A DNA stretch of 64,000 bases from NCBI GenBank assembly GCA_016186495.1, contig JACPLO010000010.1, positions 26,905-90,904 of the forward strand, in the 5' to 3' direction. Source of the stretch: Candidatus Niyogibacteria bacterium. GTDB lineage: Bacteria > Patescibacteriota > Minisyncoccia > JACROR01. The notes under the pieces are model-generated. The model saw only the letters and a list, made by a program, of their open reading frames with translations, had not been told where the DNA came from and made no database searches. How positions within the stretch are numbered: the first letter of the stretch is position 1; every line of letters begins with the position of its first letter. Below are positions 5,539 to 51,215 of this stretch, piece after piece. Position numbers and translations under genes: made by a program.

Positions 5539-7380
5539 ATGAAAAAAAATTTGCCGGACAAAAAATATATTTTAATCGCGTTAGCCAGCCTGATAATCAT
5601 TCTCGGGCCGTTCGCGGCGGAAACAACGTTCGCTTGGCTTCCTTCTGTTTTTCCTTCCATTGAAGATATATTTGCTTCTTTAGGTAATGTGATACTCTGG
5701 ATTGTTTCCTGGGTTTTATGGCTGGCCGCGCAACTTTTTGAAATGACCCTTAAATTAACTCTAAACAACGGCGCTTTTGCCAAGATCAGCGCCATTAATC
5801 TTGGCTGGAAGATTATTCGGGATGTGGTTAATCTATTTTTTATTTTTATTCTTCTTTATATCGCCATCGGCGCCATTTTGCGCCTGGCCGGCCATGATAC
5901 CAAAAAACTCCTGGTTAATTTAATCATCGCGGCTCTTTTAATAAACTTCAGTCTGCCTATTACTAAAGCCATTATTGACGCTTCCAACATTCTGGCTTTG
6001 GAATTTTACGATAACATCGGAAAAGACAAAGACGGAAATGATATCGGCGTAACTAGAACAATGATGAATGGCCTGCGCCTGACTTCTGTTTATAATAACA
6101 AAGTGTTAGAAATACCTCCCGGAACAGCGGATAAAGAAGGAGCTGCTTTCCAAAATATTATTATAGGCGCAATCGGCGGATCAGCCCTTATCTTAGTCAC
6201 GGCTTTTGTTTTTCTCGCCGCCACTTCTCTTTTTATTTTCCGGACAATCATACTTTTATTTTTAATGATTCTTTCACCTTTGGCTTTTGGCGCGATGATC
6301 CTGCCTAACACCAAACAATACGCTGACCGTTGGTGGAAAGAACTGGGCTGCCAATGTCTGCTGGCGCCGGCTTTTATGTTTATGATTTATTTGGTGGTGA
6401 TGATTATTAATAACGAGGATTTTTCTGCCGTGATCAGCGGAATTGGCGGAAACCAATCAGCAAGCATCGCTGAAGCCTTTACCAGCGGCATAGAAAAATC
6501 AGTTGGGGTTGTCCTTAATTTCTTGCTTTTAATCGGCTTAATGATCGGTTCCCTGATTATTTCTAAAAATTTGGCTTGCGCCGGCGGCAGCCAGGCAATG
6601 GCCGCGGCTAACTGGACAAAAGGAAAGGTCCAAGGATACGCGAAAAGCTATGGTAAAAGAGGCATTGGCACCGCAGCGGAATACGCGATGGAAAAAGGGA
6701 AGAAAATAGAAGAAAAAGGAGGTCGTTGGGGAAAAATAATGGGGGTTATCAGAAAAACTCCGGGCGTGGGCCGCGGCTTAGCCGCGCTATCCGCGGGCCG
6801 AGAAGAAGAGCTTGCCGCCAAACGCAAACAATATGAAAAACAATATAAAGGCTACAGCGATACCGGCTTGCAAACCATGCTGGAAACGGAAATCATTACT
6901 CCAGAAAAAAGAGAAGTTATTAAAAAAATCCAAACAGGAAGACAGGTGAAGAAAGAAATTGAAGCCAAAGAAAAAGCAAAATACAAAGAAATAGTCGGCG
7001 GCGAGGAAACCGAAATTGAATATGAAAAAGAAGGAAAAACGGTGAAAGAAAAAATAACAACCATCGGCAAACTTGGAGAAATAAATGAACAACTAAGCAA
7101 AATAACGGGAGGAATAAATAAAGATATCGGCAGTTATCTGGACGGAATTGAAGCGGAATTAGGAAAATTAAGCGGCAATACTTCAGGCAGAGCCCAACAA
7201 AGACAAGGAGAACTTGTTTTCAACCGAAATAAAATAAACAGATTAATGAAAGAAAAAGAAAAACTGGAAGCAATAAAAGAAAAACTGGAAGAAAAACAGC
7301 AAAGCGAAACGGAAAAAAAGAAACTTGAAGAAAGATTGGGAAAACTTGAACAAAAACCCGAACCAAAAGAAATAATTTAA
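5539..7380 (+). CDS. polytopic membrane protein, VirB6/TrbL-like, with Lys/Glu-rich coiled-coil C-terminus
   Basis: 613 aa, multiple hydrophobic helices in the first ~350 aa, position upstream of the VirB3/VirB4 genes; assignment by architecture and context. Confidence 0.45.
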   Translation: MKKNLPDKKYILIALASLIIILGPFAAETTFAWLPSVFPSIEDIFASLGNVILWIVSWVLWLAAQLFEMTLKLTLNNGAFAKISAINLGWKIIRDVVNLFFIFILLYIAIGAILRLAGHDTKKLLVNLIIAALLINFSLPITKAIIDASNILALEFYDNIGKDKDGNDIGVTRTMMNGLRLTSVYNNKVLEIPPGTADKEGAAFQNIIIGAIGGSALILVTAFVFLAATSLFIFRTIILLFLMILSPLAFGAMILPNTKQYADRWWKELGCQCLLAPAFMFMIYLVVMIINNEDFSAVISGIGGNQSASIAEAFTSGIEKSVGVVLNFLLLIGLMIGSLIISKNLACAGGSQAMAAANWTKGKVQGYAKSYGKRGIGTAAEYAMEKGKKIEEKGGRWGKIMGVIRKTPGVGRGLAALSAGREEELAAKRKQYEKQYKGYSDTGLQTMLETEIITPEKREVIKKIQTGRQVKKEIEAKEKAKYKEIVGGEETEIEYEKEGKTVKEKITTIGKLGEINEQLSKITGGINKDIGSYLDGIEAELGKLSGNTSGRAQQRQGELVFNRNKINRLMKEKEKLEAIKEKLEEKQQSETEKKKLEERLGKLEQKPEPKEII

Positions 7381-7435: not shown

Positions 7436-8077
7436 ATGAAATCATACACCGAACAAGAATTGGAAAAAAAATACAAACAACTTCCGGCAACAGTAGAGGA
7501 AGTGATTTTCAGCGCTAATGCGGCAAAAACTCTGGAAGAAATCAGGAAAAAATACAAACTTCAGATAGACCAACTGGGGATTTTAGCCAATGAAACCCGA
7601 CTGGTGATGCTCGGCCTGACCCATCCTAAAGATTTTATCAATAATCTGGCGGAAGGGCTGGAATTAAACAAAGAAATCGCAAAAAACATCGCCCAAGAAA
7701 TAAATCAGCGGATTTTTTACAAAATCAGGGAAGAATTAAAAAAAATGCACAGCATCGGCGAACCGGCTGATTTTTCGCCAAAGGCAGGTTCGCCTCTTCC
7801 GCCTAAAGCTGGCCAGCCTTCGGCTGGGGCTAAAAAATTCAGAATTCAGGATTTAAAAAAAACAGCGGAATTGCCGCCGATTATTGAACCAACGCCGTTA
7901 GAGCCGCCGCCAACAGAACCGCCGCCGTTAATCGCGGAAAAACCAAAAATCCCTGCCGTGCCGTTTGAACACAAACTGAAAAGCGAAGAAACAATCCGGC
8001 AGCCGCTTGAAAAAATCAAAACTTCACCGGATAAAAAATATCCCGGAGAAGACCCGTACCGCGAACCGATTATTTGA
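7436..8077 (+). CDS. hypothetical protein with Pro-rich C-terminal half
   Basis: 213-aa ORF; PPxEPPP repeats; no known domain recognised. Confidence 0.35.
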   Translation: MKSYTEQELEKKYKQLPATVEEVIFSANAAKTLEEIRKKYKLQIDQLGILANETRLVMLGLTHPKDFINNLAEGLELNKEIAKNIAQEINQRIFYKIREELKKMHSIGEPADFSPKAGSPLPPKAGQPSAGAKKFRIQDLKKTAELPPIIEPTPLEPPPTEPPPLIAEKPKIPAVPFEHKLKSEETIRQPLEKIKTSPDKKYPGEDPYREPII

Positions 8078-14731: not shown

Positions 14732-15452
14732 ATTGTATTTTTTTTGCTTTATATCTTACGATGCCTTCGTGAATTATAGTAAAAATATTCGTTGTTGTCC
14801 AATACAAAGCCACGGCCGCCGGAAAATTATAAGCAAAAATTCCGATAAAAACCGGCAGAACGTAAATCATCTGAATTTTCATCGCGCGGCTGAAATCTCC
14901 CTTTAAAGATTCGTTTGATTTTTTTTCAGAAGAAAAAGACGGCGGCTGCGTTAATTTTGCCTGAATAAATTGGGATAAGCCGGCGGTAATCGCTAAAAAT
15001 AAGCTGGCCGCGCCCAAATCAATCAATCCCAAGAATTTCATCCGCGTTATTTCAGGAAAAGCAATAAAAGAATAAAGATGGCCTTGCGTTAAATTTAAAC
15101 CTCGCCAAAAAAGACGATAAAGAGCGATTAAAATAGGAAATTGAACAAATAACACTAAAAATCCGGAGAAAGGATTTATGCCGTGTTGGCGATAAAGTTC
15201 CATTATTTTTTTAGCCTGCTCTTCTTTATTCGGATGTCTGGCCCGCAATTCTTTTATTTCCGGCTCAATCTCTTTCATTTTAAATTGAGTTTTAATTGAA
15301 TGATGAGTTAAAGGAAAAAGAGCGCTTCTGATTAAAACTGTCAGCCCGATAATCGCCAAACCCGCATCGCGCCCGGGCATAATGCTGATTAAAAAAATTA
15401 AAGCGTTAAAAAGAGGGCGGGAGAGAAATTCGGTATAAATAAAAGAAAACAT
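14685..15452 (-). CDS. yidC: membrane protein insertase YidC (short Gram-positive type)
   Basis: 255 aa; ...HGINPFSGFLVLFVQFPILIALYRLF..., YidC/Oxa1 core; operon position. Confidence 0.8.
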   Translation of the reverse strand: MFSFIYTEFLSRPLFNALIFLISIMPGRDAGLAIIGLTVLIRSALFPLTHHSIKTQFKMKEIEPEIKELRARHPNKEEQAKKIMELYRQHGINPFSGFLVLFVQFPILIALYRLFWRGLNLTQGHLYSFIAFPEITRMKFLGLIDLGAASLFLAITAGLSQFIQAKLTQPPSFSSEKKSNESLKGDFSRAMKIQMIYVLPVFIGIFAYNFPAAVALYWTTTNIFTIIHEGIVRYKAKKIQYGQFAQTAPPPDHSG

Positions 15453-15461
15453 AATTTCCTG

Positions 15462-15800
15462 ATTATTTTAATAATTTTGCTTTTTTAAAAATTTCTAAAA
15501 TATTTTTTTCAAGTTCAAGATAAGAAAGTTCGGTTGCTCCTTTTTTAAAAACTAAAATTATTGCCCCGCCTTCTTTTAAATCAGGCAAATAACGCCTGAT
15601 AATGGAATAAGAACGTCTTCTTAATTTATTTCTCGCCACGGCTTTTTGCCGGCCTTTTTTGAAATCACGCAGGCAAACTTGCTGTGATCTCGGCTGATTT
15701 TCAGATAAACCGTCAAATAATCGGTGAAAAATCTCTTCCCGGTCCGATAAATAAGAAAAAAAACATCCCTGCCTTTCAGTTTGCGGGATTTAGGCAGCAT
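15462..15800 (-). pseudogene. rnpA: RNase P protein component, interrupted by a 1-nt frameshift near 15621-15630
   Basis: Manual translation: MLPKSRKLKGRDVFFLIYRTGKRFFTDYLTVYLKISRDHSKFACVISKKAGKKPWREIN* (59 aa), then the RnpA-like C-terminal part (KLRRRSYSIIRRYLPDLKEGGAIILVFKKGATELSYLEL...) continues in another frame; total span 338 nt, not a multiple of 3. Confidence 0.5.
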
Positions 15801-15806
15801 AAAAAA

Positions 15807-15942
15807 CTAAACCGCCAGCCGTTGACGCCCCTTTCTTCTTCTTTTTTTAATAATTTTACGGCCGCTGGTATTTTTTTTTCTTTTTAAAAAACCATGAGTG
15901 CGAGCGCGTTTTCTTTTTTTAGGCTGATAAGTAATAGACATA
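15807..15942 (-). CDS. rpmH: 50S ribosomal protein L34
   Basis: Manual translation [44 protein letters not shown]; classic rpmH-rnpA-yidC-jag order. Confidence 0.75.
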
Positions 15943-15986
15943 TAAATACTATACAATATATCAGATTTAAAAACAATTTTTACAGG

Positions 15987-15995
15987 TTATCCACA
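15987..15995 (+). promoter_or_regulatory. Perfect DnaA box TTATCCACA upstream of dnaA
   Basis: exact 9-mer read from sequence, 113 bp upstream of the dnaA start. Confidence 0.5.
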
Positions 15996-16107
15996 TTATA
16001 TTAAGATTTTATGATGGTTTTTAATAAAAACAAACATTTGTCTAAACCGGATTTTAATTAGATAATTAAAAAATCAACATTGTAAAAAAATAATTGAAAA
16101 ATAAATC

Positions 16108-17475
16108 ATGACCAATGAAGAACTTTGGAAAGCGGCTTTAAATGAAATTGAACTGGAAGTTTCAAGAGCTAATTTTATTACCTGGTTTAAAAATACGCAG
16201 ATTGCTGAAAATAAAGAAGGGGTTATCACCATTAACGTTCCCAATACTTTTATTAAAGAATGGCTGGAAGATAAATACCAAAAATTAATCTTAAAATCTT
16301 TACGCAATTATCATCAGGAAATTAGAAATATTTCTTACAATATTGTCGCGCACGCCAATCCTAATCTTAATATGAATTACTTGCTTCTTAAAAAACAGAA
16401 ATCCGCTCCTCTGCCGGAAACCCAGCTGGAATTTAAAGAATTTCAAAATAATAATGAAACCGGCCTTAATCACCGTTACACTCTTGATTCTTTTATCGTG
16501 GGATCTTTTAATGAATTAGCGCACGCCGCTTCCGTGGCGGTCACAAAAAATATCGGCACTCTTTATAATCCTCTTTTTATTTATGGCGGCGTGGGACTTG
16601 GAAAAACCCATCTTATCCAGGCAACCGGAAATGAAATTAAAAAAAACAATCCCGCGGCTAAAATAAAATATGTGACTTCTGAAAAATTTACCAGTGAAGT
16701 GGTGGATGCCATCCAAAAAAACGAAATGCCGGCTTTTAAAACAAAATATCGGGGATATGATGTTTTAATCATTGACGACGTCCAATTTTTTTCCCGAACC
16801 GTTCAGGGGCAAGAACAGCTTTTTCACACTTTCAACACTCTTTATGACAGCAACAAGCAAATAATTTTATCCGCCGACCGTCCGCCGCGCTCAATCGGCG
16901 ACATTGAAGAAAGATTAAGATCACGTTTTGAAGGCGGGATTATGACCGACGTTTCCGAACCGGAATATGAATCAAGGTTAGCAATTTTAAAAGTAAAAAG
17001 TTCCGCTAAAAATCACTATCTTTTAGATGAAACTTTGGAATATATTGCCTCCAGCGTTAAACATAATATCAGGGAATTGGAGGGAGCTTTAACTTTAGTG
17101 ATCGCTAAAGAAAAATTAATAGGCCGTCCTTTGAATTTAGACCAAGTAAAAGAAATTTTAAATAAAAACACTCAGCCAAAAAAACTTTTAACCGCGACGC
17201 AAATTATTAAAACCGTGGCTAATTATTATAATATTGAAGAAAAAAATTTATTTAAAAAAACCAGAAAAAAAGAAATAGTCAAACCCCGCCAAGTGGCGAT
17301 GTATCTTTTACGCGAAGATTTTAACGGCTCTTATCCTTATATCGGCCAAAAATTCGGCGGGCGCGACCACACCACCGCCATTCATTCTTGCGAAAAAATT
17401 ATTGAAGATTTAAAAAAAGATGAGCGTTTAATAGAAGAAATAAAAAAAATAAGAGAAATCCTTTACACTAATTAA
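16108..17475 (+). CDS. dnaA: chromosomal replication initiator DnaA
   Basis: 455 aa; AAA+ Walker A GGVGLGKTHL; C-terminal DnaA-box binding HTH (QVAMYLLRE...GGRDHTTAIH). Confidence 0.95.
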   Translation: MTNEELWKAALNEIELEVSRANFITWFKNTQIAENKEGVITINVPNTFIKEWLEDKYQKLILKSLRNYHQEIRNISYNIVAHANPNLNMNYLLLKKQKSAPLPETQLEFKEFQNNNETGLNHRYTLDSFIVGSFNELAHAASVAVTKNIGTLYNPLFIYGGVGLGKTHLIQATGNEIKKNNPAAKIKYVTSEKFTSEVVDAIQKNEMPAFKTKYRGYDVLIIDDVQFFSRTVQGQEQLFHTFNTLYDSNKQIILSADRPPRSIGDIEERLRSRFEGGIMTDVSEPEYESRLAILKVKSSAKNHYLLDETLEYIASSVKHNIRELEGALTLVIAKEKLIGRPLNLDQVKEILNKNTQPKKLLTATQIIKTVANYYNIEEKNLFKKTRKKEIVKPRQVAMYLLREDFNGSYPYIGQKFGGRDHTTAIHSCEKIIEDLKKDERLIEEIKKIREILYTN

Positions 17476-17759
17476 AAATATAAGTAAATTTATTATAAAA
17501 TATTTTTAATAAAACATAGTAAAAAGTGTTGAAAAATATGTTAATAAATTATTTAAAAAATAAAAAACAATAATTTAATTTAAATAAAAATTAATTTTTT
17601 AAAAAAAATCTTCTTATTTTCCCCAAGTTATTAATAAAATAAATAATTAAAAACATTAAAATTAAAGGTTAATTTAAACATTTCCCCATTTCCACAGTTT
17701 TATATATAATAATAATAATTTTTAATTTAAAATTAATTAATTAATTATTATAAATAATT
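17476..17759. other. extremely AT-rich dnaA-dnaN spacer, candidate DNA-unwinding element of oriC
   Basis: 284 bp composed almost entirely of A/T runs between dnaA and dnaN. Confidence 0.5.
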
Positions 17760-18860
17760 ATGAAAATTACTTGTTTTAAAAATCATCTGAAAGAAAAATT
17801 ATTTTTTGCGGAAAAAAATGCCGCTAAAATTTCCAATATACCGGTTTTAAGCGGTGTTTATTTAGAAACTGATAAAAATAGTTTAAAAATAATTTCCACT
17901 AATTTAGAAACCGGTTTTGAAGCGGTGATTCCCGCTAAAATTCATCAAGAAGGTAAAATAATAATTCCGGCTAAGATAATAACACAATTAATTAATACTT
18001 TATCTGATGAAAAAATAACTTTAGAATCAATCGGACAAAATATTAATCTCTCAACTGAAAAAATTTCCAGTTTAATAAAAGGATATCCTCTTGAAGATTT
18101 TCCTAGTTTGCCTAAAATAAAAAAATCTTATATTTTTACCATTTCTTCCCAAGAATTAAATCAAGGATTAAAATTAGTTTGCAATGCCGCTTCTAATTCT
18201 GGTTTAAAACCAGAAATCGCCAGTATTCTTTTTTATATTCAAAATAAAAATCCTTTAAAATTAGTGGCCACTGATTCTTTTCGTTTAGCGGAAAAAACTT
18301 TAAACTGCGCGGTAAAAAACGCGGAATCTTTTATTTTACCGATAAAAAGCGCGGTTGAAATTATTAAATTATTAGAAAATAAAGAAGAAGATATTCAAAT
18401 TTCTTTTAATCTGAATCAAATAAATTTTTCCGGAAAAGATTTTAATTTTATTTCCCGTTTAATTGAAGGTGTTTTTCCGAGTTATGAATCAATTATTCCA
18501 AAAAAATTCTGCACCGAGGTGTTGATAAAAAAAGACCAGTTAATTGACGCTTTTCGTTCCGCCAGTATTTTTTCCAGTTATTTAAATGAAATAACTTTAA
18601 ATATCGTTCCGGAGGATAATTTAATGGAAATCAGAACTAAATCCGGAGAAATAGGGGAGCACACCTCGCAATTAAACGTTAAAATAACCGGCGAAAAAAT
18701 CAGTTTAAATTTTAATTATTATTATCTTTTAGACGGTCTTCAGAATATCAATCATTCCGAGGTTTTACTTAGGTTTAGCGGTGAAAATCATCCGCTTTTA
18801 ATTCAATTTCCCGGCGACTCTTCTTATTTTTATCTGGTGATGCCGATGAAAAATACTTAA
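17760..18860 (+). CDS. dnaN: DNA polymerase III beta sliding clamp
   Basis: 366 aa; three-domain clamp length; position after dnaA. Confidence 0.85.
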   Translation: MKITCFKNHLKEKLFFAEKNAAKISNIPVLSGVYLETDKNSLKIISTNLETGFEAVIPAKIHQEGKIIIPAKIITQLINTLSDEKITLESIGQNINLSTEKISSLIKGYPLEDFPSLPKIKKSYIFTISSQELNQGLKLVCNAASNSGLKPEIASILFYIQNKNPLKLVATDSFRLAEKTLNCAVKNAESFILPIKSAVEIIKLLENKEEDIQISFNLNQINFSGKDFNFISRLIEGVFPSYESIIPKKFCTEVLIKKDQLIDAFRSASIFSSYLNEITLNIVPEDNLMEIRTKSGEIGEHTSQLNVKITGEKISLNFNYYYLLDGLQNINHSEVLLRFSGENHPLLIQFPGDSSYFYLVMPMKNT

Positions 18861-26180: not shown

Positions 26181-26352
26181 CCTATTGCCTCGTGCCATTC
26201 GGCACATCGGCAATTTTTTGCTTTCAGCGAAAATCGGATAAAAAACAAAGCAGTTTGCTTTTTACCACCTATTGCCTCGTGCCATTCGGCACATCGGCAA
26301 TTTTTTGCTTTCAGCAAAAATCAGATAAAAAGCAAAGCAGTTTGCTTTTTAT
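26181..26352. repeat. 2 x 87-bp tandem repeat, each unit with two hairpins (GTGCCATTCGGCAC; AAAAAGCAAAGCAGTTTGCTTTTT)
   Basis: units 26181-26267 and 26268-26352 differ at ~5 positions; shares the CAAAGCAGTTTG hairpin core with the 159-bp tRNA-Leu-associated repeats. Confidence 0.7.
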
Positions 26353-28019
26353 CCCAACACTCTTTCTAATTCTTCCAAACTGCTTTTTCCCGCTAAAACT
26401 TTAAGCGCCGCGTCTTGCCCCATCGTCATCATTCCCTGTTTTTGGGCGATTTTTTTAAATTCTGATTCCAGCGGCATCGGGCCTAAAATAACGCGCTCGG
26501 TTTCGTCATCCACCCGGAAAGCTTCAAAGACGCCGACTCTTCCTTTATAGCCGGTTTGATTGCAAAGTTCGCAGCCCACGGCTTTAAACAGAAAAAGATT
26601 TTTAAAATCCGGTTTTTTTATGTCTGCCGGCAGATCAGCGAGAATTTTTTCCAGCCGCGCTTTTTCTTCGGCGCCGGCTTTTACTTTCTTTTTACATTGT
26701 TGGCAAAGCGTTCTAATAAGGCGCTGGGCCATGGCCATGGTAATCGCCGGCGCGACAATGTTGGGTTTAGCGCCGATGTCAATCAGGCGGGGAATGGTGC
26801 CAAAAGCGTTATTGGTGTGGAGCGTGGAAAAAACCAAATGGCCGGTCAGCGCGGCGTTAAGCGCGGTGCGGGCGGTTTCCAAATCCCTGATTTCTCCCAC
26901 TAAAATAACATCGGGGTCCTGGCGCATAATCGCGCGCAAAGCAGTGGAAAAATCATAACCCTTGTCAAAATTAACTTGAGATTGGCTGATGCCTTCAATA
27001 TGGTATTCTATCGGGTTTTCAATAGTGATAATTTTAATATCCGGCGTAAGAACTTTTTTAATAAAAGCGTAAAGCGTGGTGGTTTTTCCCGAGCCGGTGG
27101 GGCCGGTGGTTAAAATCATTCCGTTCGGCCTTTTGATTTCTTTTTCCATTATTTTCAGCAAGTTTTCCTGCATGCCTAAATTTTCAAAAGAAATAGAGAT
27201 GGTTTTAGGATGGAGGATTCTCATAACGATTGTTTCCCCGTAGGCGCTGGGCAGGACGGAAACCCTTACTTCCACATCCAGATCTTTTATTTTTATGGTA
27301 AAGCGTCCGTCTTGGGCGCGATCAGAAACGTTTAATTTAAGTTTGGCGATTAATTTAAGGCGGGACAGCAAGAGCCGATAAATAAAAAAAGAAAAATCAA
27401 TCACGTTATAAAGCATGCCGTCCAGCCGGAATCTCAAGCGGACTTGTTCTTCTTGCGGTTCAAGATGGATGTCCGAGGCTTCCAGAGCGTAAGCGCCGGC
27501 CAAAATTACTTCCGCGATGTTTGATATTTTTTGAACTTCTTTGGCGTTGAAAAGAGGAGTCAGAATTTTTTGCAGATCAGAAATGTTTTTAATTTCTTTA
27601 AGGTATGTTTCAAGATTTTGAGAAGAGATGCTGATCAGGCCCGCGGAAACAGCTTCAAATTTTGGAATTTCTTCGTATTTTCCCCAAGCTCTTTTTAAGC
27701 TGTTTTCGGAAACCAAAAAAAGCCGGCTTTGGTATAATTCTTTTTTAAGATTTTCCAAAATCGCCTTGGTCAGAGGAAGTTCCGGGTTTTTTACGGCTAC
27801 GCTTATTTTTTTGCCCGTTTTTTGAAAAATCGCCAATTGGCCGTCGCGCGCTTCTTTTTCCGGAATGATTTTTAAAGCGTCTATTTCAATGGTTATCCGG
27901 GAAAGATCGGCGTAAGGCAAGCCATATTTTTGAGAAAGAATTTGCGCTAAATCTTCCGCTTCCTTTTTTTTTATTTCTTTTAGTTTTTCTTCTCTTTTTT
28001 CCGCGAGATTATTGTTCAT
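26349..28019 (-). CDS. pilB: type IV pilus / type II secretion assembly ATPase (GspE/PilB family)
   Basis: 556 aa; Walker A GPTGSGKTT; tetracysteine CxxC...CxxC motif near C-terminus; N-terminal GspE_N-like region. Confidence 0.85.
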   Translation of the reverse strand: MNNNLAEKREEKLKEIKKKEAEDLAQILSQKYGLPYADLSRITIEIDALKIIPEKEARDGQLAIFQKTGKKISVAVKNPELPLTKAILENLKKELYQSRLFLVSENSLKRAWGKYEEIPKFEAVSAGLISISSQNLETYLKEIKNISDLQKILTPLFNAKEVQKISNIAEVILAGAYALEASDIHLEPQEEQVRLRFRLDGMLYNVIDFSFFIYRLLLSRLKLIAKLKLNVSDRAQDGRFTIKIKDLDVEVRVSVLPSAYGETIVMRILHPKTISISFENLGMQENLLKIMEKEIKRPNGMILTTGPTGSGKTTTLYAFIKKVLTPDIKIITIENPIEYHIEGISQSQVNFDKGYDFSTALRAIMRQDPDVILVGEIRDLETARTALNAALTGHLVFSTLHTNNAFGTIPRLIDIGAKPNIVAPAITMAMAQRLIRTLCQQCKKKVKAGAEEKARLEKILADLPADIKKPDFKNLFLFKAVGCELCNQTGYKGRVGVFEAFRVDDETERVILGPMPLESEFKKIAQKQGMMTMGQDAALKVLAGKSSLEELERVLG

Positions 28020-36262: not shown

Positions 36263-36637
36263 GTTAAAAATTTAAAATTACTTGAATCTCCGATATTTTT
36301 ATAGTAAACTTTTTTTTATGGCAAACAATGTTTAATTTGTGGAAAAGGGTCGCGGATGGGGGGTAAAAGAAATCTTTTGCGCGGAAAATATAATCCTACT
36401 CCTAAAAAACGAAAATATCCCAATCTTCAGTGGGCGAGTTTTCCGGCTGGCGGCAGGATAAAAATTTGCACCCGTTGTCTCAAGAAAAATAAACTGCTTT
36501 ATTTTTCTTCCGATTCTTTGCAAAGCAAAAAAATTGCCAGTATGCCGAAGGCGCGAAGCAATAAGGAACAGAATCTCCATCTCAAAAAAACGGCTGTAAA
36601 ATAACCGTTTTTTGAGATAATAGTAAATAATAAATAT

Positions 36638-36810
36638 CGGGCCATAGTATAATGGCAGTACGCAAGGCTGGCTTTTCAAGTAATTTATCGGGATGTCGTA
36701 TAGTGGCAGTACGCATGCATGGGGTGCATGCAGTCCGAGTTCGATTCTCGGCATCCCGACCAATTACTTGAAAAGTTGCAACTTGGGTTCAATTCCCAGT
36801 GGCCCGACCA
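36638..36810 (+). other. tRNA-like outer halves (acceptor CGGGCCA/TGGCCCG-ACCA; D-arm and T-arm intact) separated by a 13-bp stem enclosing tRNA-Pro
   Basis: 5' part CGGGCCATAGTATAATGGCAGTACG... and 3' part ...TTGGGTTCAATTCCCAGTGGCCCGACCA; CTTTTCAAGTAAT (36672-36684) pairs with ATTACTTGAAAAG (36765-36777). Confidence 0.5.
36689..36762 (+). tRNA. tRNA-Pro (anticodon GGG), encoded CCA
   Basis: CGGGATG acceptor / CATCCCG-A-CCA; anticodon stem CATGC, loop ATGGGGT; T-arm CCGAG-TTCGATT-CTCGG. Confidence 0.75.
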
Positions 36811-41401: not shown

Positions 41402-41476
41402 GACCCTATCGTCTAGCCCGGCCTAGGACGTGTCCCTTTCACGGACAAAACGCGGGTTCAAATCCCGCTAGGGTCA
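41402..41476 (+). tRNA. tRNA-Glu (anticodon TTC)
   Basis: near-identical architecture to canonical bacterial tRNA-Glu (GTCTAG...CCCTTTCACGG...GGTTCAAATCC); acceptor GACCCTA/TAGGGTC. Confidence 0.8.
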
Positions 41477-41496
41477 TGCGAAATAATTGTTTGTTT

Positions 41497-41551
41497 CGGA
41501 CGCGAGTAAATTACTTTACTCGTATCGGGATTTGAAATCCCGCTAGGGTCA
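41497..41551 (+). repeat. hairpin + degenerate copy of the tRNA-Glu 3' end (CGGGATTTGAAATCCCGCTAGGGTCA)
   Basis: CGAGTAAATTACTTTACTCG hairpin, then 26 nt matching the T-arm/acceptor 3' strand of the upstream tRNA-Glu. Confidence 0.6.
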
Positions 41552-41590
41552 ATTGTTTTGCCTTTTTTGCGCCTTTAGCTTAATGGCAGA

Positions 41591-41791
41591 GCGTTCTCTT
41601 GCCCCGTTAGAAACCAATACGCGCGGTTAGCTCAGTGGTAGAGCATTCGCTTGACGTGCGAAGGGTCATAGGTTCAAATCCTATACCGCGCACCGCAAGT
41701 TTCTAACGGGGTGAATGCAAAAGGCTGTAGGTCTGTCCCGTAGCCAGACGAAGTCTGTGGTACTGGGATTCAATCCCTACAAGGCGCACAC
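41591..41791 (+). other. tRNA-like outer halves (GCGCCTT...D-arm... / ...GGGATTCAATCCC-TACAAGGCGC-ACA) flanking an inverted-repeat-enclosed tRNA-Val
   Basis: 5' GCGCCTTTAGCTTAATGGCAGAGCG (acceptor + D-arm) and 3' AAGGCGC perfectly complementary acceptor strand; inner IR CCCCGTTAGAAACC (41602-41615) / GTTTCTAACGGGG (41699-41711). Confidence 0.4.
41621..41694 (+). tRNA. tRNA-Val (anticodon GAC)
   Basis: GCGCGGT acceptor, TAGCTCAGTGGTAGAGC D-arm, loop TTGACGT, T-arm GGTTCAAATCC, ACCGCGC-A-CC. Confidence 0.8.
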
Positions 41792-45798: not shown

Positions 45799-45986
45799 AT
45801 TTTTCTTCGGCGGAATTCGGATTACTGAAATTCTAACAAATTTTAGTCTTGAAGAGAATCTTATGAAAATTCTTCTTTTCTGTTTCTAACGGAATCTGGA
45901 ATTTCTTTTTGCCTCGAAAAATCCGTACGATTTGGTCGCCGAGCGAAGCGAGGCGAATCTTTAAAACTTGCAATTTCCTATGTGGT

Positions 45987-46302
45987 GCGCGGGAGAGGAT
46001 TTGGTCACAAATAAATTTCCTGACGGAAATTTTTCGCGACCCCGCCTCGCTTGTTCCGCTTCGCGGAACATCGTTCGGCTTTCAAATCCTCACGCGAACA
46101 AAGCAGTTTGTTCGCTTCCCGCGCCAATTCACCGTGTTCATTATGCGCGGGAGAGGATTTGGTCACAAATAAATTTCCTGACGGAAATTTTTTGCGACCC
46201 CGCCTCGCTTGTTCCGCTTCGCGGAACATCGCTGTGGCTTTCAAATCCTCACGCGAACAAAGCAGTTTGTTCGCTTCCCGCGCTAATTCACCGTGTTCAT
46301 TA
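45987..46302. repeat. 2 x ~159-bp tandem repeat downstream of tRNA-Leu(GAG); each unit starts with a copy of the tRNA 3' end (GCGCGGGAGAGGATTTG) followed by GTCACAAATAAATTTCCTGACGGAAA and two hairpins
   Basis: units from 45987 and 46145 ~97% identical; hairpins GTTCCGCTTCGCGGAAC and GCGAACAAAGCAGTTTGTTCGC; generates spurious ORFs on both strands. Confidence 0.8.
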
Positions 46303-46385
46303 TGCGCGGGAGAGGATTTGAACCTCCACGCCTTGCGGCATACGCCCCTCAAGCGTACGTGTCTACCGGGTTCCACCACCCGCGC
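46303..46385 (-). tRNA. tRNA-Leu (anticodon GAG), long variable arm
   Basis: minus strand GCGCGGG...GTG-GAACCCGGTAGA-CAC...TACGC-TTGAGGG-GCGTA...TGCCGCAAGGCGTG...GGTTCAAATCC...CCCGCGC-A. Confidence 0.7.
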
Positions 46386-46389
46386 ATTT

Positions 46390-46869
46390 TTATTCTTTTT
46401 TGGTTTCAGGAAGTTTTTCTTTTGTTTCCAGAGTGTTTTTTTCTTCAGCCGCGGCCGGTTTTTCCGTTTGAGTTGATAAAAGCATTATAGCTTCGGTTTT
46501 TAATTGTTTCATTTTCTTTTTGATTTCTTTGGCGGCTTTTTCGCGGATATGATAAAGCTTGGCGCGCCGGGTTTTTGAACGGCGCACCAGTTCTATTTTT
46601 TCAATATTAGGAGAATACAATGGGAAAACGCGTTCAACGCCAAAGCCGCCGCTCAATCGCCTGACCGTAAAAGTCGCTCCGGATTCGGCGCCGTGTTTTT
46701 TGGCGATGATTATTCCTTCAAAAGCCTGAAGCCGCGTTTTATCGCCTTCTTTGATTTTCTGCCAGACGCGCACCGTGTCTCCGGAACGAATGTCCGTTTT
46801 TTTTCTTTCTTTCATATTAACCGGCAAAAAATTGGCTGATATTACTGGCATATTAAATCTTTTTATCAC
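46390..46869 (-). CDS. rplS: 50S ribosomal protein L19 with Lys-rich C-terminal extension
   Basis: [32 protein letters not shown]...[13 protein letters not shown] typical L19. Confidence 0.85.
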
Positions 46870-46925
46870 AAATTTTAATTTTAATCAAACCCCCGCATTT
46901 ATAATAAGTGCGGGGGTTAAATGTT

Positions 46926-47612
46926 TCATTTCAATTTTTCCAGCGTATTTTTTAAATCTTCGGGCAAATCCGCTTCAAGTTTAAGGCGAGAACCGGCCGG
47001 CAAAGTCAATTCTAAAGAAAAAGCATGCAGGAAATGCCGTTTAAGGCCATTCGGGCATCGGAATAATTTTCCCGCGTAAAGCTGGTCGCAAGCTAACGGA
47101 TAGCCGATGGCTTTCAGATGCGTTCTTATCTGATGGGTGCGGCCGGTTTTCGGCTCAAGTTCAAGCAAAGTGTAGCCGTTGAATTTTTTCAAAACCTTAT
47201 AATAAGTAAGGGCTTCGCGCAATCGGCCGGAGGCTCTGACGCTGGCCGCGCGCTTAATGGGATTTTTTTTGGCGCGGCCGATCGGCAAATTTATTTTGCC
47301 TTTTTTTTGCCGGATTTCGCCGATTGCCAAAGCAAGATATTTTTTAACGATTTTTTGCCGCTGGAATTGTTTTTTTAAATAATCAAAAGTTTCCTGATTT
47401 TTTGCGATAAGTAAAATTCCGGAAGTGTCTTTGTCCAGCCGATGGACAACGCCGGGCCGCGCCGGATTATCTCCCACTTTTTTAATTTCCGGCCTTATCT
47501 CTGTTATTTTATCTATTAAAGTTTCTTTTTTGTGGTGGGCGTCGGGATGAACCACCAAGCCAGCCGGTTTATTGACCGCTAAAAGATCGCGGTCTTCGTA
47601 AATAATTTCCAT
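46926..47612 (-). CDS. RluA-family pseudouridine synthase (RluD-like)
   Basis: HRLDKDTSGILLIAK catalytic Asp motif; 228 aa. Confidence 0.8.
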   Translation of the reverse strand: MEIIYEDRDLLAVNKPAGLVVHPDAHHKKETLIDKITEIRPEIKKVGDNPARPGVVHRLDKDTSGILLIAKNQETFDYLKKQFQRQKIVKKYLALAIGEIRQKKGKINLPIGRAKKNPIKRAASVRASGRLREALTYYKVLKKFNGYTLLELEPKTGRTHQIRTHLKAIGYPLACDQLYAGKLFRCPNGLKRHFLHAFSLELTLPAGSRLKLEADLPEDLKNTLEKLK

Positions 47613-47689
47613 AAAATATTTAAAAGCGTATAATTAAATAATAGTCGATTTTTTAATGAAAAATAAATAGCAATTCAATAAAAGATAAT

Positions 47690-47926
47690 ATGAAGAAAGT
47701 AATTATTTATTCTACTCCGACCTGCGGTTATTGCCATATGGCCAAAGATTTTTTTAAGGAACATAACATAGATTATACGGATTATGATGTTGCGGCGGAT
47801 GATGCCAAGAGGCAGGAAATGATTGACCGTTCCGGCCAAATGGGCGTGCCGGTCATTGATATTGACGGCGAATTAACAATCGGATTTGACGAACAAAAAA
47901 TATCCAAACTTTTAGGAATTAAATAA
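47690..47926 (+). CDS. glutaredoxin-like protein (NrdH/YruB type)
   Basis: 78 aa; YSTPTCGYCHMAK CxxC motif. Confidence 0.7.
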   Translation: MKKVIIYSTPTCGYCHMAKDFFKEHNIDYTDYDVAADDAKRQEMIDRSGQMGVPVIDIDGELTIGFDEQKISKLLGIK

Positions 47927-48654
47927 TGGTTTCAAAGTGGCTTCAACAAAGTAATTCCTGGCATGAAAACAAGCATATCAAAGGAGGGCAATATTTAAAG
48001 AATATTGTTTATGGCGCCAATGACGGGATTATCACTACTTTTGCGGTGGTGGCCGGCGTAGCCGGAGCTTCTCTTTCTTCCGTTGTTATTGTGATTATGG
48101 GTTTGGTTAATCTTTTAGCGGACGGATTTTCAATGGCTGTTTCTAATTATCTTAGCATTAAATCAGAAATAGATATTTATCAGCGCGAAAAAGAAGTGGA
48201 AAAGAAAGAGATTCAAATTAATCCCGAACAGGAGAAAAAAGAAATCCGCAATATTTTAGCCAGCAAGGGTTATCAGGGAGAAGATTTGGAAAAAATAACG
48301 GCGCTGATTTCCAAAAATAAAACTTTTTGGCTTGATTTTATGATGCATGAAGAATTGAATTTTGCGCCCGCCGCCAGTTATCGGCCTAAAAGAGCGGCTC
48401 TCGCCACTTTTTTATCTTTTATCGCCGCCGGTTTTGTGCCGATTTTGCCTTATTTGATTTTTAAGGGAAGCGGAGACGAAGTATTTAAATACGCGGTGGC
48501 GATGACCGGCGTTGCTCTTTTTACGGTTGGTTCTTTACGCTCATTTTTTACTAATAAAAAATGGCATTTAGCCGGTTTAGAAATGCTTTTTGTCGGCAGT
48601 ATTGCCGCGGCGATCGCTTACGGCGCGGGATTTTTATTGAAAGGAATTACTTAA
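47926..48654 (+). CDS. VIT1/CCC1-family membrane protein (iron/manganese transporter-like)
   Basis: GANDGIITTFAVVAGVAGA signature; 242 aa. Confidence 0.7.
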   Translation: MVSKWLQQSNSWHENKHIKGGQYLKNIVYGANDGIITTFAVVAGVAGASLSSVVIVIMGLVNLLADGFSMAVSNYLSIKSEIDIYQREKEVEKKEIQINPEQEKKEIRNILASKGYQGEDLEKITALISKNKTFWLDFMMHEELNFAPAASYRPKRAALATFLSFIAAGFVPILPYLIFKGSGDEVFKYAVAMTGVALFTVGSLRSFFTNKKWHLAGLEMLFVGSIAAAIAYGAGFLLKGIT

Positions 48655-48692
48655 CTTTCTTTTGTTCTTCAAGCTGCAAAAGCACAGCGCTT

Positions 48693-49748
48693 TTAAATTT
48701 CTTCCAATTCAACTTGGGTTTGCGTTTTCTTCCCATTGCGAAGAATGGTCAGATTTATTTTTTCGCCGATTTTGAAGTTGGAGAGAATGTCCTCCAAAGT
48801 ATTTTCTTCGTTGATTTCTTTTTCATTGCATTTCAGCACAATGTCAAATTCTTGAAGGCCGGCTTTATCCGCGGGACTGTTTGAAATAATCGCGGTTTCT
48901 CCTTGAGGCAGGCCTTCGCTGACAATCAGCGCGCCGGTTGAGACCGGCAGATGAAATCTTTCTTGGATTTGATCGTTCAAAATAATATGGCGGAGTCCGA
49001 TAAAAGGGCGCCGGATGCGGCCGTATTTTTTAATTTCTTCCAAATCGCGTTTGGCTCTTTCAATGGGAATGGCAAAGCCGATATTTTGGGCGCCGAAAAC
49101 AACGGCGGAATTTATGCCGATAGCCCGGCCCTCAAGATCAATCATCGGTCCGCCGGAATTGCCGGGATTAATTGCCGCGTCGGTTTGAATAAGCCCTTTC
49201 AGCCGTTCTTGATGGCCGGCCATATCCGTTACCGCGGTGATTAAACGCGAGAGGCCGGAAACTACGCCGGTGGAAACCGTATTTTGAAATTCGTTTAAAG
49301 CATTGCCAATGGCGATGACGGTTTGCCCCAATTCCAAATCAAACGAAGAGCCTAATTCCAAGTGAGGAAGATTTTTACTTTTTATTTTTAAAATCGCTAC
49401 GTCATTTAAAGGATCTCTGGCCAGCACTTCGGCTTCATGTTTTTTCCCGCCGCCCATGATTATGCTGTATTCGGCGTCAGGATCAACCACCACGTGTTTA
49501 TTGGTTAAAATAATTCCCTCGGGGGAGATGACAAAACCGGATCCGCCTCCGACTTTAATATGCCCATGTTCGTCTTTGGGCGCTTGTTTTAATTTAGTTT
49601 CAATAAAAGCGCGGTCATAAGGATTGTTAAATAAAGGATTAAAAGAAAGTTCTTTGGCAATTTGTTCCAGGTCTTTGGAAATTGCCACGCTGACGACGGC
49701 CGGTAAAGTTTTTTTAACCGCATTTTTAATTTTTTGTTCGTAATCCAT
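48693..49748 (-). CDS. htrA: HtrA/DegP-family serine protease with PDZ domain
   Basis: GNSGGPMIDLEGRAIGINSA; TNKHVV (His), D...; C-terminal PDZ. Confidence 0.8.
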   Translation of the reverse strand: MDYEQKIKNAVKKTLPAVVSVAISKDLEQIAKELSFNPLFNNPYDRAFIETKLKQAPKDEHGHIKVGGGSGFVISPEGIILTNKHVVVDPDAEYSIIMGGGKKHEAEVLARDPLNDVAILKIKSKNLPHLELGSSFDLELGQTVIAIGNALNEFQNTVSTGVVSGLSRLITAVTDMAGHQERLKGLIQTDAAINPGNSGGPMIDLEGRAIGINSAVVFGAQNIGFAIPIERAKRDLEEIKKYGRIRRPFIGLRHIILNDQIQERFHLPVSTGALIVSEGLPQGETAIISNSPADKAGLQEFDIVLKCNEKEINEENTLEDILSNFKIGEKINLTILRNGKKTQTQVELEEI

Positions 49749-49888
49749 AATATAAGTTTGATTTTAACGCTGATAATGTATTATACTACGTATAATTTAC
49801 ATTCGCTCGGCAATGAACGGCAATGAAAAATTAATTTTTCTTTCATTGTTCTCGCTCATTTAATTATAAAGTATAGCATATTATTTTT

Positions 49889-49961
49889 CTCCTCGTAGTT
49901 CAACGGACCAGAACAACCCCGTCCTAAGGGGTAAATAGAGGTTCGATTCCTCTCGAGGAGA
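49889..49961 (+). tRNA. tRNA-Arg (anticodon CCT)
   Basis: CTCCTCG acceptor / CGAGGAG-A; anticodon stem ACCCC/GGGGT loop GTCCTAA; T-arm AGAGG-TTCGATT-CCTCT. Confidence 0.7.
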
Positions 49962-49984
49962 TTAAGTTTTGTTTTTTAAAACAG

Positions 49985-50056
49985 GCGCGCTTAGCTCAGT
50001 GGTAGAGCATCGCTTTTACACAGCGAGGGCCGGGGGTTCAATCCCCTCAGCGCGCA
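49985..50056 (+). tRNA. tRNA-Val (anticodon TAC)
   Basis: GCGCGCT acceptor, TAGCTCAGTGGTAGAGC, loop TTTACAC, GGTTCAATCC, AGCGCGC-A. Confidence 0.75.
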
Positions 50057-50328
50057 AAAAAATGAATGAAGTGAATTTTTGAGTGCGTTGAGCAAGCCAA
50101 CTGCTTGGCTTGCGCAGGGGATTGAAAAAATTTTCTATATCGCGAAGCGATAGAAAATTAGCGCCCTGCAAGGGCAATCCCCTCAGCGCGCAAAAAAATG
50201 AATGAAGTGAATTTTTGAGTGCGTTGAGCAAGCCAACTGCTTGGCTTGCGCAGGGGATTGAAAAAATTTTCTATATCGCAAAGCGATAGAAAATTAGCGC
50301 CCTGCAAGGGCAATCCCCTCAGCGCGCA
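50057..50328. repeat. 2 x 136-bp tandem repeat downstream of tRNA-Val(TAC), each unit ending with a copy of the tRNA 3' end (CAATCCCCTCAGCGCGCA)
   Basis: units 50057-50192 and 50193-50328 nearly identical; internal hairpins TTTCTATATCGC-GAA-GCGATAGAAA and GCAAGCCAA-CTG-CTTGGCTTGC; also an inverted partial copy GCGCAGGGGATTG. Confidence 0.8.
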
Positions 50329-50352
50329 CAAAAAATTATTATAATTATTAAA

Positions 50353-50435
50353 GGAAGGGTGCGCCGAATGGCAAGGCACCGCTCTCGAAAAGCGGAGCCC
50401 GCAAGGGCTTGTGGGTTCAAGTCCCACCCCTTCCG
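50353..50435 (+). tRNA. tRNA-Ser (anticodon CGA), long variable arm
   Basis: GGAAGGG acceptor; anticodon stem CCGCT/AGCGG loop CTCGAAA; variable arm GCCCGCAAGGGC; GGGTTCAAGTCCC; CCCTTCC-G. Confidence 0.75.
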
Positions 50436-50660
50436 TAAAAGTTAAATGGGTGGGACTTGAACGGAGCGATATTATCGCTCCGAGGAATTTCCTTAAGAGG
50501 AAATTAAGTCCCACCCCTTCCGTAAAAGTTAAATGGGTGGGACTTGGTCACAAATAATTTTCCTGACGGAAAATTATCGCGACCCCGCCTCGCGGCGCTC
50601 GCCTTTGCTTCGCAAAACTCGCGCATCGCTGCGGTTTTCAAATTCCAACGGAATTTGAAC
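50436..50660. repeat. structured repeat downstream of tRNA-Ser(CGA): TAAAAGTTAAATGGGTGGGACTTG twice, a copy of the tRNA 3' end (AAGTCCCACCCCTTCCG at ~50505-50522), palindromes GGAGCGATATTATCGCTCC and AATTTCCTTAAGAGGAAATT, then a GTCACAAATAATTTTCCTGACGGAAA family element
   Basis: read directly; the GTCACAAATAA...CGCGACCCCGCCTCGC segment matches the 45987-46302 repeat units. Confidence 0.75.
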
Positions 50661-50750
50661 GGAGCGATATTATCATCCGCGAGATTTTTTTATACGCGCG
50701 CATTACTCAATAAAATTGAAAAAATTTTTAAAAAAGGTATAATAAAATTC

Positions 50751-51215
50751 ATGAAATTCTTTAATGAAGATATTGTTTATTTCGCGGCCGGAACAGCGAT
50801 CGCGGCGATTTTAATTTTTATTTGGCTTATTATTTTGGAATGGCGGCTGAAAAAACTTTTTAAAGGAAGCGACGGCCGCGATCTGATGGGGATTTTAACC
50901 GGCCGCGGAAAAGAATTGAACGGCCTAAAAAAAAGAATGCTGGAAATAGAAAAATATCTTCAAGAATCCGAACTGCGCCTTCAAAAAAGCCTTAAAAATG
51001 TAGGATTGGTGAGATTTGATTCTTTTGAAGGAGTGGGCGGAAAGCAAAGTTTTTCAGCCGCGTTTTTAGATGAAAATAAAAACGGAACGGTTATTTCCAG
51101 CCTTTACGGCCGTGATTTTAACAGGATTTACGCCAAACCTGTGGAAAGCGGCATTTCGTCCCATTCGCTTTCGGAAGAAGAAAAAGAAGCGATCAAGAAA
51201 GCAATCAGCGAATAG
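50751..51215 (+). CDS. DUF4446-like small membrane-anchored protein
   Basis: start moved to ATG 50751 (MKFFNEDIVYFAAG...); the track ORF's first 69 codons are translation of the repeat element. Confidence 0.5.
   Translation: MKFFNEDIVYFAAGTAIAAILIFIWLIILEWRLKKLFKGSDGRDLMGILTGRGKELNGLKKRMLEIEKYLQESELRLQKSLKNVGLVRFDSFEGVGGKQSFSAAFLDENKNGTVISSLYGRDFNRIYAKPVESGISSHSLSEEEKEAIKKAISE

Follow-up and report, generated by a model that had tools for sequence, protein, structure and literature searches.

We analyzed a 64,000-nucleotide stretch of DNA from Candidatus Niyogibacteria bacterium (GenBank assembly GCA_016186495.1, contig JACPLO010000010.1), referred to below as the window, in which several transfer RNA (tRNA) genes are followed by structured repeat units that carry copies of the tRNA 3' end and, at two loci, a shared element that we call E. 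The window has a G+C content of 40.6% and holds dnaA-dnaN, the genes for L19, IF-2 and MurB, and 12 tRNA genes. An HtrA-like protease encoded there has the same sequence as a protein assigned by its sources to Candidatus Niyogibacteria (Patescibacteria/CPR). Because dnaA and dnaN are side by side (16108-18860), it probably lies near the replication origin; AT-rich short tandem repeats occur at 15451-17760, on both sides of dnaA. Structured non-coding units of 75-159 nt are situated 3' of four tRNAs, namely Leu(GAG), Val(TAC), Ser(CGA) and Glu(TTC). The original prediction, made from the letters of this stretch, had listed echoes of the tRNA end at five tRNAs. These four were borne out; the fifth, a supposed copy of the tRNA-Val(GAC) end at 41760-41791, is only ~15/20 identical to that end and forms the 3' end of another, split tRNA-like gene. 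The host genes and units are listed here by window position, with covariance-model scores in bits.

46303..46386, minus strand: tRNA-Leu(GAG), intact host gene (ARAGORN, Rfam, sequence); the repeated 18-mer is its T-loop/3' end, CAAATCCTCTCCCGCGCA (C56-A73).
46144..46302, minus strand: proximal Leu unit, 159 nt (covariance-model match 46152-46251, 93 bits), comprising spacer 46302-46284; acceptor-5' mimic GCGCGGG 46283-46277; hairpin H with CUGC loop 46274-46253; inverted copy GAGGATTTG 46250-46242; E core 46241-46162; direct tRNA-end copy 46161-46144.
45986..46143, minus strand: distal Leu unit, 158 nt (84 bits), laid out as the proximal one; E core 46082-46004; direct copy 46003-45986.
49985..50056, plus strand: tRNA-Val(TAC), intact host gene (ARAGORN, Rfam).
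50057..50192, plus strand: Val unit 1, 136 nt, comprising spacer with ATGAATGAAGTGAAT motif 50057-50080; acceptor mimic 50081-50092 (two G.U pairs); hairpin H 50092-50113; inverted copy AGGGGATTGAA 50116-50126; two-hairpin module 50127-50174; direct copy CAATCCCCTCAGCGCGCA 50175-50192.
50193..50328, plus strand: Val unit 2, 136 nt, 99% identical to Val unit 1.
50353..50435, plus strand: tRNA-Ser(CGA), intact host gene (ARAGORN, Rfam).
50436..50522, plus strand: Ser unit 1, 87 nt, comprising spacer 50436-50447; inverted copy GGGTGGGACTTG(AA) 50448-50461; two hairpins 50462-50505; direct copy AAGTCCCACCCCTTCCG 50506-50522.
50523..50674, plus strand: Ser unit 2, truncated; it agrees with unit 1 over its first 24 nt (50523-50546) and over the 17 nt that come next (50658-50674), with an E insertion between these two stretches and unrelated sequence thereafter.
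50547..50657, minus strand: minimal E element, 111 nt (109 bits), inverted relative to tRNA-Ser; on the minus strand, a CAAATTCC-GTT-GGAATTTG hairpin (50657-50639) and the E core (50638-50547).
41402..41476, plus strand: tRNA-Glu(TTC), intact host gene (ARAGORN, Rfam).
41477..41551, plus strand: Glu unit, 75 nt, without inner module and laid out as a Leu unit minus the E core; hairpin 41503-41522; inverted copy CGGGATTTG 41526-41534 abutting direct copy AAATCCCGCTAGGGTCA 41535-41551.

The predicted sizes also held. Two Leu repeats, put at 159 bp each, measure 159 and 158 nt (46302-46144 and 46143-45986), and Tandem Repeats Finder scored the array at 633 with a period of 158 and 97% matches. 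The 2 x 136-nt Val array at 50057-50328 was recovered with 98% matches by the same program and a repeat finder, and tandem copies are 97-99% identical overall. The 87-bp Ser unit at 50436-50522 is followed, as proposed, by a further element, the truncated second unit carrying E, and the hairpin and tRNA-end copy noted behind tRNA-Glu form the 75-nt unit at 41477-41551. Open reading frames (ORFs) at 45968, 46051, 46005 and 50158, together with the first 69 codons of the one at 50544, had been called spurious and do overlap tRNA genes and repeats; Pfam places the start of the DUF4446 gene at 50751, and its orthologues have 154-157 amino acids.

Read in the sense of the tRNA, the order is the GGTT of the tRNA, a copy of C56-A73, a spacer, a mimic of the acceptor 5' strand, hairpin H, the complement, an inner module, and the displaced C56-A73. 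The spacer often contains ATGAA..GTGAAT motifs, the acceptor mimic is frequent without being universal, and hairpin H has the apex AACUGCUU with a conserved CUGC loop. Each unit closes with an exact copy of the tRNA end, 18 nt from C56 in the Leu and Val units and 17 nt from A57 in the Ser and Glu units, and each carries upstream of it the reverse complement of T54 to ~position 64, an inverted copy that the original prediction did not mention. All tRNA-end copies in the window stop at discriminator 73; in some other genomes the replacement copy extends through the tRNA terminator. The inner module varies by locus: the Leu units have E, the Val and Ser units have a pair of small hairpins, and the Glu unit has none. 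The last hairpin of every module type adjoins the tRNA-end copy with zero unpaired bases between them. The predicted fold of each unit is a long stem that encloses the inner hairpins, with energy z-scores of −4.2 to −8.5, and it is more stable for the tRNA-sense strand than for the complementary one (−53.8 vs −46.4 kcal/mol for Val, −25.6 vs −19.1 kcal/mol for Glu).

The claim that two loci share one element proved correct, as the arrangement GTCAC...CCTGACGGAAA...GCGACCCCGCC occurs at 46004, 46162 and 50547, with 0 expected in 100 shuffles. Had E been absent from relatives, the case for a mobile family would have ended there; instead, it is widespread. We scanned GTDB, at one genome per species, with an exact pattern of 22-27 fixed bases, which makes part of the sequence invariance of E circular. 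The scan returned 41 loci, of which 37 are genuine (Saccharibacteria, many Parcubacteria lineages, Moranbacteria and two Elusimicrobia) and four, sited in coding regions, were dismissed as chance; three sites belong to the genome of Parelusimicrobium proximum. A metagenome scan added 40 further loci, and a covariance model of E finds additional divergent copies. Among 67 non-redundant pattern-matching copies from Patescibacteria and Elusimicrobia, 58 have a tRNA or transfer-messenger RNA (tmRNA) gene on the same strand within 900 nt upstream (tmRNA in four), with at least 15 tRNA amino-acid types represented; the other nine are mostly at contig ends. The occurrence at tmRNA genes and across phyla had likewise gone unmentioned. 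Two E-bearing contigs (L005, L036) sit in metagenome-assembled genomes labeled "Gammaproteobacteria". These contigs are probably mis-binned, since the genes neighboring E on L036 are shared with a Patescibacteria contig (L015).

The position of E relative to the tRNA is precise. Downstream of GUGAC, 40 copies align to the tRNA from the base directly after T55 onward (39 following GGTT, one following GGTG), and in 24 copies the tRNA match downstream of E is 15-27 nt long. E thus sits between T55 and C56, which leaves the tRNA intact and its original 3' end displaced downstream. In a second arrangement, found mainly in Saccharibacteria, E comes after a long perfect hairpin that starts in the last bases of the tRNA, and the downstream repeat is 3-6 nt. 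Across copies, the duplicated target ranges from ~4 to ~53 nt. Apparent cases of E nested inside E (L032, L039, L040) turned out on inspection to be a truncated neighbor and an expanded variable hairpin.

Behind tRNA-Leu(CAG) of P. proximum (L021 2500-3030, minus strand) lies a ~270-nt insert with the T-loop complement and a different inner module that contains an internal tandem repeat, flanked by a 53-nt direct repeat running from C56 through the tRNA terminator. In a Moranbacteria genome (L013), Rfam identifies two group I introns (6813-7058 and 7570-7777) in a tRNA-rich stretch that also has two E units.

No counterpart of E emerged from the RNA-family, viral and plasmid collections searched. 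Rfam 15, run at gathering and permissive thresholds over the window and the best loci, returned only tRNA, tmRNA and unrelated group I introns, with nothing over E even at E-values of 5-10. The E pattern had no match in IMG/VR, and a BLAST search with the E unit had none in INPHARED phages or PLSDB plasmids. Within the literature on tRNA-end repeats, small T-loop-targeting elements and structured RNAs in Patescibacteria, we found no description of E; the nearest publications are a report on group I introns in patescibacterial tRNAs (PMC13011429), which does not mention an E-like element, and one on tandem ssrA islands (PMC3146451). E forms a conserved family behind tRNA and tmRNA genes in many ultra-small bacteria and is apparently undescribed.

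An alignment of 35 copies shows that, on the tRNA-sense strand, E folds as a three-way junction composed of P1 (the complement paired with the copy), a long arm P2-Pb, and a hairpin P4 ending in GUGAC; the divergent copies found by the covariance model have other P4 apices. The displaced tRNA end pairs with the element's complement and so closes the junction, whose conserved strands are AAAGCC and GAGGCGGGG. Paired cells amount to 88% in the alignment versus 39-49% in slid controls, compensatory changes occur in 27 of 42 pairs, and none of 500 shuffles (0/500) reached the observed values. All ten P1 pairs (10/10) have changes on both sides, showing that the complement follows whichever tRNA is adjacent. 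In the internal helices, G.U combinations outnumber A.C by 100 to 6, G92.U122 and U33.G68 are invariant, and tandem G.A pairs recur. The excess of G.U over A.C indicates that the fold exists on the tRNA-sense strand only, as RNA or single-stranded DNA. This strand-specific, covarying junction was also new relative to the original prediction; like the inverted copy of the tRNA end and the occurrence at tmRNA genes and in different phyla, it is something for which any mechanism has to account. Outside the search pattern, the junction nucleotides AAGCC, GUUU...AAGGC and GUGAC are near-invariant. The acceptor part of the tRNA-end copy pairs with the upstream mimic beyond expectation (mean 6.35 vs 5.36 +/- 0.24 when permuted, a value not reached in 300 permutations), and the mimic is missing in several lineages.

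Evidence for insertion comes from Ser unit 2, where the 111-nt minimal E splits sequence that is continuous in unit 1. The site is GTT^CAAGTCC, between T and C, and it corresponds to the complement of the unit's own inverted copy; the element has one hairpin at each end. Judged by this comparison of the two units, the minimal E was inserted cleanly into a T-loop-like site and faces the opposite way from the tRNA.

Comparison with close relatives shows that the units turn over quickly. Two relatives whose HtrA is 88% identical (L046, L048) have the same tRNA-Leu(GAG) 3' end as the window without a unit, and four (L046-L049) all carry tRNA-Val(TAC) with a window-identical 3' end, again without a unit. 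These four encode the same HtrA protein, yet differ at tRNA-Ser, where one of them has an 87-type unit plus an E unit and each of the other three has a sense-oriented E unit alone (the L046 scaffold has a gap in this region). Between the conserved tRNA-Ser and the DUF4446 promoter, the units of the window and of L047 are wholly different, and relatives at 78% HtrA identity have another inner module (AAGGGUUGAGC...) at tRNA-Leu. Similarity also extends between genomes and between tRNAs: over 38 nt of hairpin plus complement, the Val unit and an E-type unit at tRNA-Arg in a Moranbacteria genome (L018) share 97% identity, and the three E copies of P. proximum, at three different tRNAs, have common genome-specific Pb and P4 helices. 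Arrays are polar, with an intact proximal unit and distal units that are truncated or have degenerate tRNA-end copies (the window Ser array, L013, L021, L028 and L009).

No mobility gene accompanies the units. ORF clustering (at least 100 amino acids; 90 in a first pass) over ~80 loci yielded no recurrent mobility gene and only housekeeping neighbors such as SmpB, L19, RluA-like proteins and ClpB. Pfam searches of window ORFs, around the arrays and elsewhere, gave housekeeping domains and no recombinase; the units, at 75-160 nt, have no ORF inside, and no HUH gene was present in the E loci examined, which are loci rather than whole genomes. Part of the original prediction, repeated site-specific insertion that regenerates the tRNA end, thus agrees with the tRNA and tmRNA association, the T55|C56 junction, the turnover and the minimal insertion. 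Its attribution to an integrase is not supported, with no integrase or other mobility gene linked to any of the ~80 loci. A classical att core would have similar arms, but the sequence left of the junction is GTGAC in E and AAGGGC, GGAAATT or AAAGGG in other modules, versus GGGTT or GAGTT in tRNAs. Element and target show no relation on this side of the junction, which makes a classical recombinase core site unlikely.

Large serine recombinase genes (Resolvase + Recombinase + Zn_ribbon_recom) were found in two relatives (L047 3-1511, L050 252-1757), where they converge on and overlap the 3' ends of tRNA-Leu(TAA) and tRNA-Ala(GGC). Integrase-bearing elements thus also use tRNA ends in this clade, and the two recombinases are candidate trans-acting enzymes, nothing more.

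The best-supported reading of these data is that the host targets are the T-loops of tRNA and tmRNA genes and that the 75-160-nt non-coding units are inserted there. More specifically, we assign a probability of about 50% to a small, non-autonomous insertion element that is directed at the T-loop, rebuilds the tRNA end and works by way of a folded single strand of tRNA sense. Such an element would move as a folded single strand, most likely DNA, by analogy with the integron attC site or the CTX phage attachment site, with an enzyme supplied in trans by the host or by another element. The internal complement could guide the element or imitate the target as a pseudo-duplex. New copies would enter only at the intact tRNA while older copies decay, and unequal crossing-over between the 18-nt repeats may also create local tandem copies. 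An intrinsic-terminator-like hairpin with a T-run separates the tRNA or tmRNA from E in at least 14 of 48 copies, which argues for a DNA role rather than that of a co-transcribed RNA. The segment duplicated in P. proximum takes in the tRNA terminator, and a promoter would have no room there. DNA-level and RNA roles are not mutually exclusive.

Several observations weigh against this element. No enzyme for the reaction emerged from the ~80 loci, none of which has a linked mobility gene. The assembled sequences showed no excised or circular form and no empty site with both flanks conserved; synteny downstream of tRNA-Leu and tRNA-Val differs in relatives. The GTGAC left of the E junction is unlike the tRNA GGTT, which disfavors a conventional tyrosine- or serine-recombinase core site, and closing helix P1 shows little strand asymmetry (G.U 21 vs A.C 15). 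The reading offers no route by which a copy would acquire the 18-nt repeat, complement and acceptor mimic of a new tRNA; an alternative is that every lineage keeps to a single tRNA and that gene conversion homogenizes the E cores. Finally, strict co-orientation with the tRNA, the invariant G.U and tandem G.A pairs, the near-invariant junction nucleotides across phyla, and repeats whose last base, in the window and close relatives, is precisely the discriminator fit a functional RNA equally well.

The strongest rival, though we consider it unlikely, is that the units encode small tRNA-like RNAs, or modules for RNA processing or stability, that are co-transcribed with the tRNA. On this account, RNase P and RNase Z would cut out an acceptor/T-stem minihelix formed by the acceptor mimic and tRNA-end copy, the inner modules, E among them, would be functional domains, and genomes would differ because an accessory RNA is gained and lost. 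Beside tRNAs, E is always on the tRNA-sense strand, where the Val and Glu units also fold more stably, its pairing is RNA-like (G.U excess, invariant G.U pairs, tandem G.A), and the pairing of the acceptor mimic above permuted controls would suit a minihelix, as would the exact stop at the discriminator and junction motifs conserved outside the search pattern. The same account has difficulty with units that are present, absent or module-swapped at the same tRNA in close relatives, with one copy inverted and inserted within another unit, and with the frequency of truncated and degenerate copies. The terminator-like hairpins upstream of E and the lack of promoter room also speak against it, as do the lineages that lack the mimic and the absence of a matching Rfam family.

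Somewhat less likely still, in our view, is that E and its sister modules form a new class of structured, self-guided mobile nucleic acid that homes to tRNA genes without any element-encoded protein. The fold and internal complement would direct insertion into the T-loop, and catalysis would be either ribozyme-like, through an RNA intermediate, or due to a universal host enzyme. If true, this reading would explain spread between phyla by the near-invariance of the target.

We regard it as improbable that the units are scars, meaning attL/attR remnants and deletion derivatives, of integrase-encoding prophages or islands at tRNA T-loops that were then tandem-duplicated. Williams is said to have noted in 2002 that P4-type integrase islands typically have direct repeats of the terminal 17-20 nt of a tRNA, from within the T-loop onward, and the repeats described here resemble them. 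Dehalococcoides likewise has tandem ssrA islands with repeated tmRNA 3' ends (PMC3146451), and the serine recombinase genes of the two relatives abut tRNA 3' ends. Scars, however, would preserve neither a three-way junction that covaries across phyla nor an internal complement matched to each tRNA. No integrase gene or fragment lies in or beside the units, and the three viral and plasmid collections searched contain no E.

A still weaker case can be made for an origin without dedicated machinery, in which template switching or fold-back synthesis at the T-arm hairpin, expansion by slippage or unequal crossing-over, and spread of E by gene conversion would together produce the units. The direct-inverted-direct order resembles template-switch products, the Glu complement and copy abut as a near-perfect palindrome, and the high identity of tandem copies would fit. 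Such processes, which we think very improbable as the full explanation, would not be expected to give the T55|C56 junction in 40 independent copies at many tRNA types, E boundaries identical in distant phyla, a clean 111-nt insertion on the opposite strand, or a conserved spacer motif and CUGC hairpin.

Assembly artefacts can be dismissed with near certainty: contigs from two independent short-read runs end inside the repeats, so the count of two units per array rests on one assembly, but the tRNA-to-unit junctions are nonetheless reproduced in those independent contigs, and the same architecture exists in record CP015019 (P. proximum), titled as the complete genome of a named strain, and in the chromosome-level metagenome-assembled records OZ244961 and OZ253947.

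Several known element classes were considered and set aside. Hammerhead, hepatitis delta virus-like, twister and hatchet ribozymes misfit the junction strands and have no Rfam match, and E is far too small for a group I or group II intron. A TnpB omega-RNA remnant would be self-targeted at the regenerated target beside GGTT. Fixed-length duplication of the casposon or CRISPR kind is at odds with the variable repeat length, a primer-binding site with a complement that leaves the CCA end uncovered, and BstBI-type cutting at TT^CGAA with the many target loops that read TTCAAAT. A miniature inverted-repeat transposable element was rejected because the inverted repeat is target-derived and tRNA-specific, the duplication spans ~4 to ~53 nt, and no parent insertion sequence was found in the loci.

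The window contains a further set of repeats with a hairpin in common with the units. The original prediction had linked a loop-hairpin family to 87-bp repeats elsewhere in the stretch, and the AAACUGCUUU hairpin indeed occurs in the Leu units, the Val units and those repeats (26181-26354). The latter are two tandem copies of an 87-nt three-hairpin element on the minus strand, directly after the stop codon of a T2SSE/PilB-type ATPase gene. A third, diverged copy lies at 36482-36565 (plus strand), at the 3' end of a small ORF (36356-36604), and its stem differences keep the hairpins paired. In each instance the element is co-oriented with the upstream gene, a sign that protein genes may have a related element family at their 3' ends.

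At the tRNA-Val(GAC) locus, tRNA-like sequences are nested. A tRNA-like 5' half (GCGCCTT...CTTGCC) occupies 41569-41603, its matching 3' end, CAATCCCTACAAGGCGCA, occupies 41771-41788 with a unit-like hairpin insertion in its T-loop, and tRNA-Val(GAC) (41621-41692) is nested within this split gene. The acceptor strands GCGCCTT/AAGGCGC match each other and not tRNA-Val(GAC). Between the two halves, a 13-14-bp stem formed by CCCCGTTAGAAAC and GTTTCTAACGGGG encloses the inner tRNA, and the region 41569-41790 has a fold z-score of −6.2. Relatives have tRNA-Glu and tRNA-Val adjacent, with no such nested arrangement. A comparable arrangement occurs at 36638-36810, where a complete tRNA-Pro(GGG) (36689-36762) is nested between a 5' half, CGGGCCA... 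(36638-36671), and a 3' part, ...TTGGGTTCAATTCCCAGTGGCCCGACCA (36776-36810), with a 13-bp inverted repeat, CTTTTCAAGTAAT/ATTACTTGAAAAG, around the inner tRNA. This locus resembles either a split tRNA or a tRNA whose anticodon region has received a tRNA-carrying insertion.

Patescibacteria genomes measure ~1 Mb and are thought to be poor in mobile elements. A non-coding family behind many of their tRNA and tmRNA genes escapes annotation, yields spurious ORFs and breaks short-read assemblies. The features described here, namely a precise T-loop target, built-in replacement of the tRNA end and sometimes of its terminator, and a covarying three-way junction common to two phyla, are not known together. 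Identifying the enzyme or RNA activity behind E might bring to light a new route for DNA insertion into a sequence that is universally conserved; if the RNA reading were true, E would represent a widespread, undescribed class of structured RNA tied to tRNA biology. P. proximum has several copies and a genome record that gives a strain name, so a culture of it may be obtainable as a test system.

Among known systems, islands and prophages that integrate at T-loops through P4-type tyrosine integrases, and the Dehalococcoides ssrA islands, use the same target, the 3' part of tRNA and tmRNA genes, restore it with a replacement copy of about the last 17-20 nt that gives direct repeats, and accrete in tandem at the site. 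The elements in our study differ in that they are 75-160 nt, non-coding and without an integrase, have sequence left of the junction unrelated to the target, and hold an internal target complement and a conserved three-way junction. Tiny, hairpin-rich, non-coding and strand-specific elements mobilized in trans are also familiar from repetitive extragenic palindromic (REP) sequences, bacterial interspersed mosaic elements and palindromes derived from IS200/IS605, which depend on Y1 HUH enzymes. IS200/IS605 and REP/RAYT systems likewise insert 3' of a short motif, here GGTT (GGTG in one copy). In contrast to these, E units contain an extended duplicate of the downstream target as well as its complement, the foot of the hairpin falls on the cleavage position, and no TnpA/RAYT gene was found in the E loci examined.

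RNA-level parallels are more distant. Archaeal tRNA introns at non-canonical positions and split tRNAs also involve T-loop insertions whose flanks pair together and which show signs of spread among tRNA genes, but the functional tRNA here is uninterrupted and there is no bulge-helix-bulge motif; bacteria are not known to have the splicing endonuclease. Non-coding RNAs with tRNA-like parts, such as YrlA/Y RNA, mascRNA and the tRNA-like domain of tmRNA, similarly close a structured RNA with an acceptor/T-stem-like helix and may be RNase P/RNase Z substrates. In our units, by contrast, the acceptor sequence copies the neighboring tRNA, a ~95-nt module replaces the T-loop, Rfam offers no match, and close relatives are polymorphic. 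Integron attC and CTX-phage attP(+) sites offer a closer likeness: structure is conserved over sequence and on one strand only, the stem arises from inverted copies with a variable terminal structure, units form arrays with a short common boundary, and no recombinase gene lies inside the unit. The target here is the tRNA T-loop rather than attI or dif, and the T-loop GTTCRAW misfits the attC R-box (RYYYAAC/GTTRRRY). The nearest analogies are two: T-loop-integrating islands for the target and repeats, and folded sites of the attC/CTX type for the strand-specific fold.

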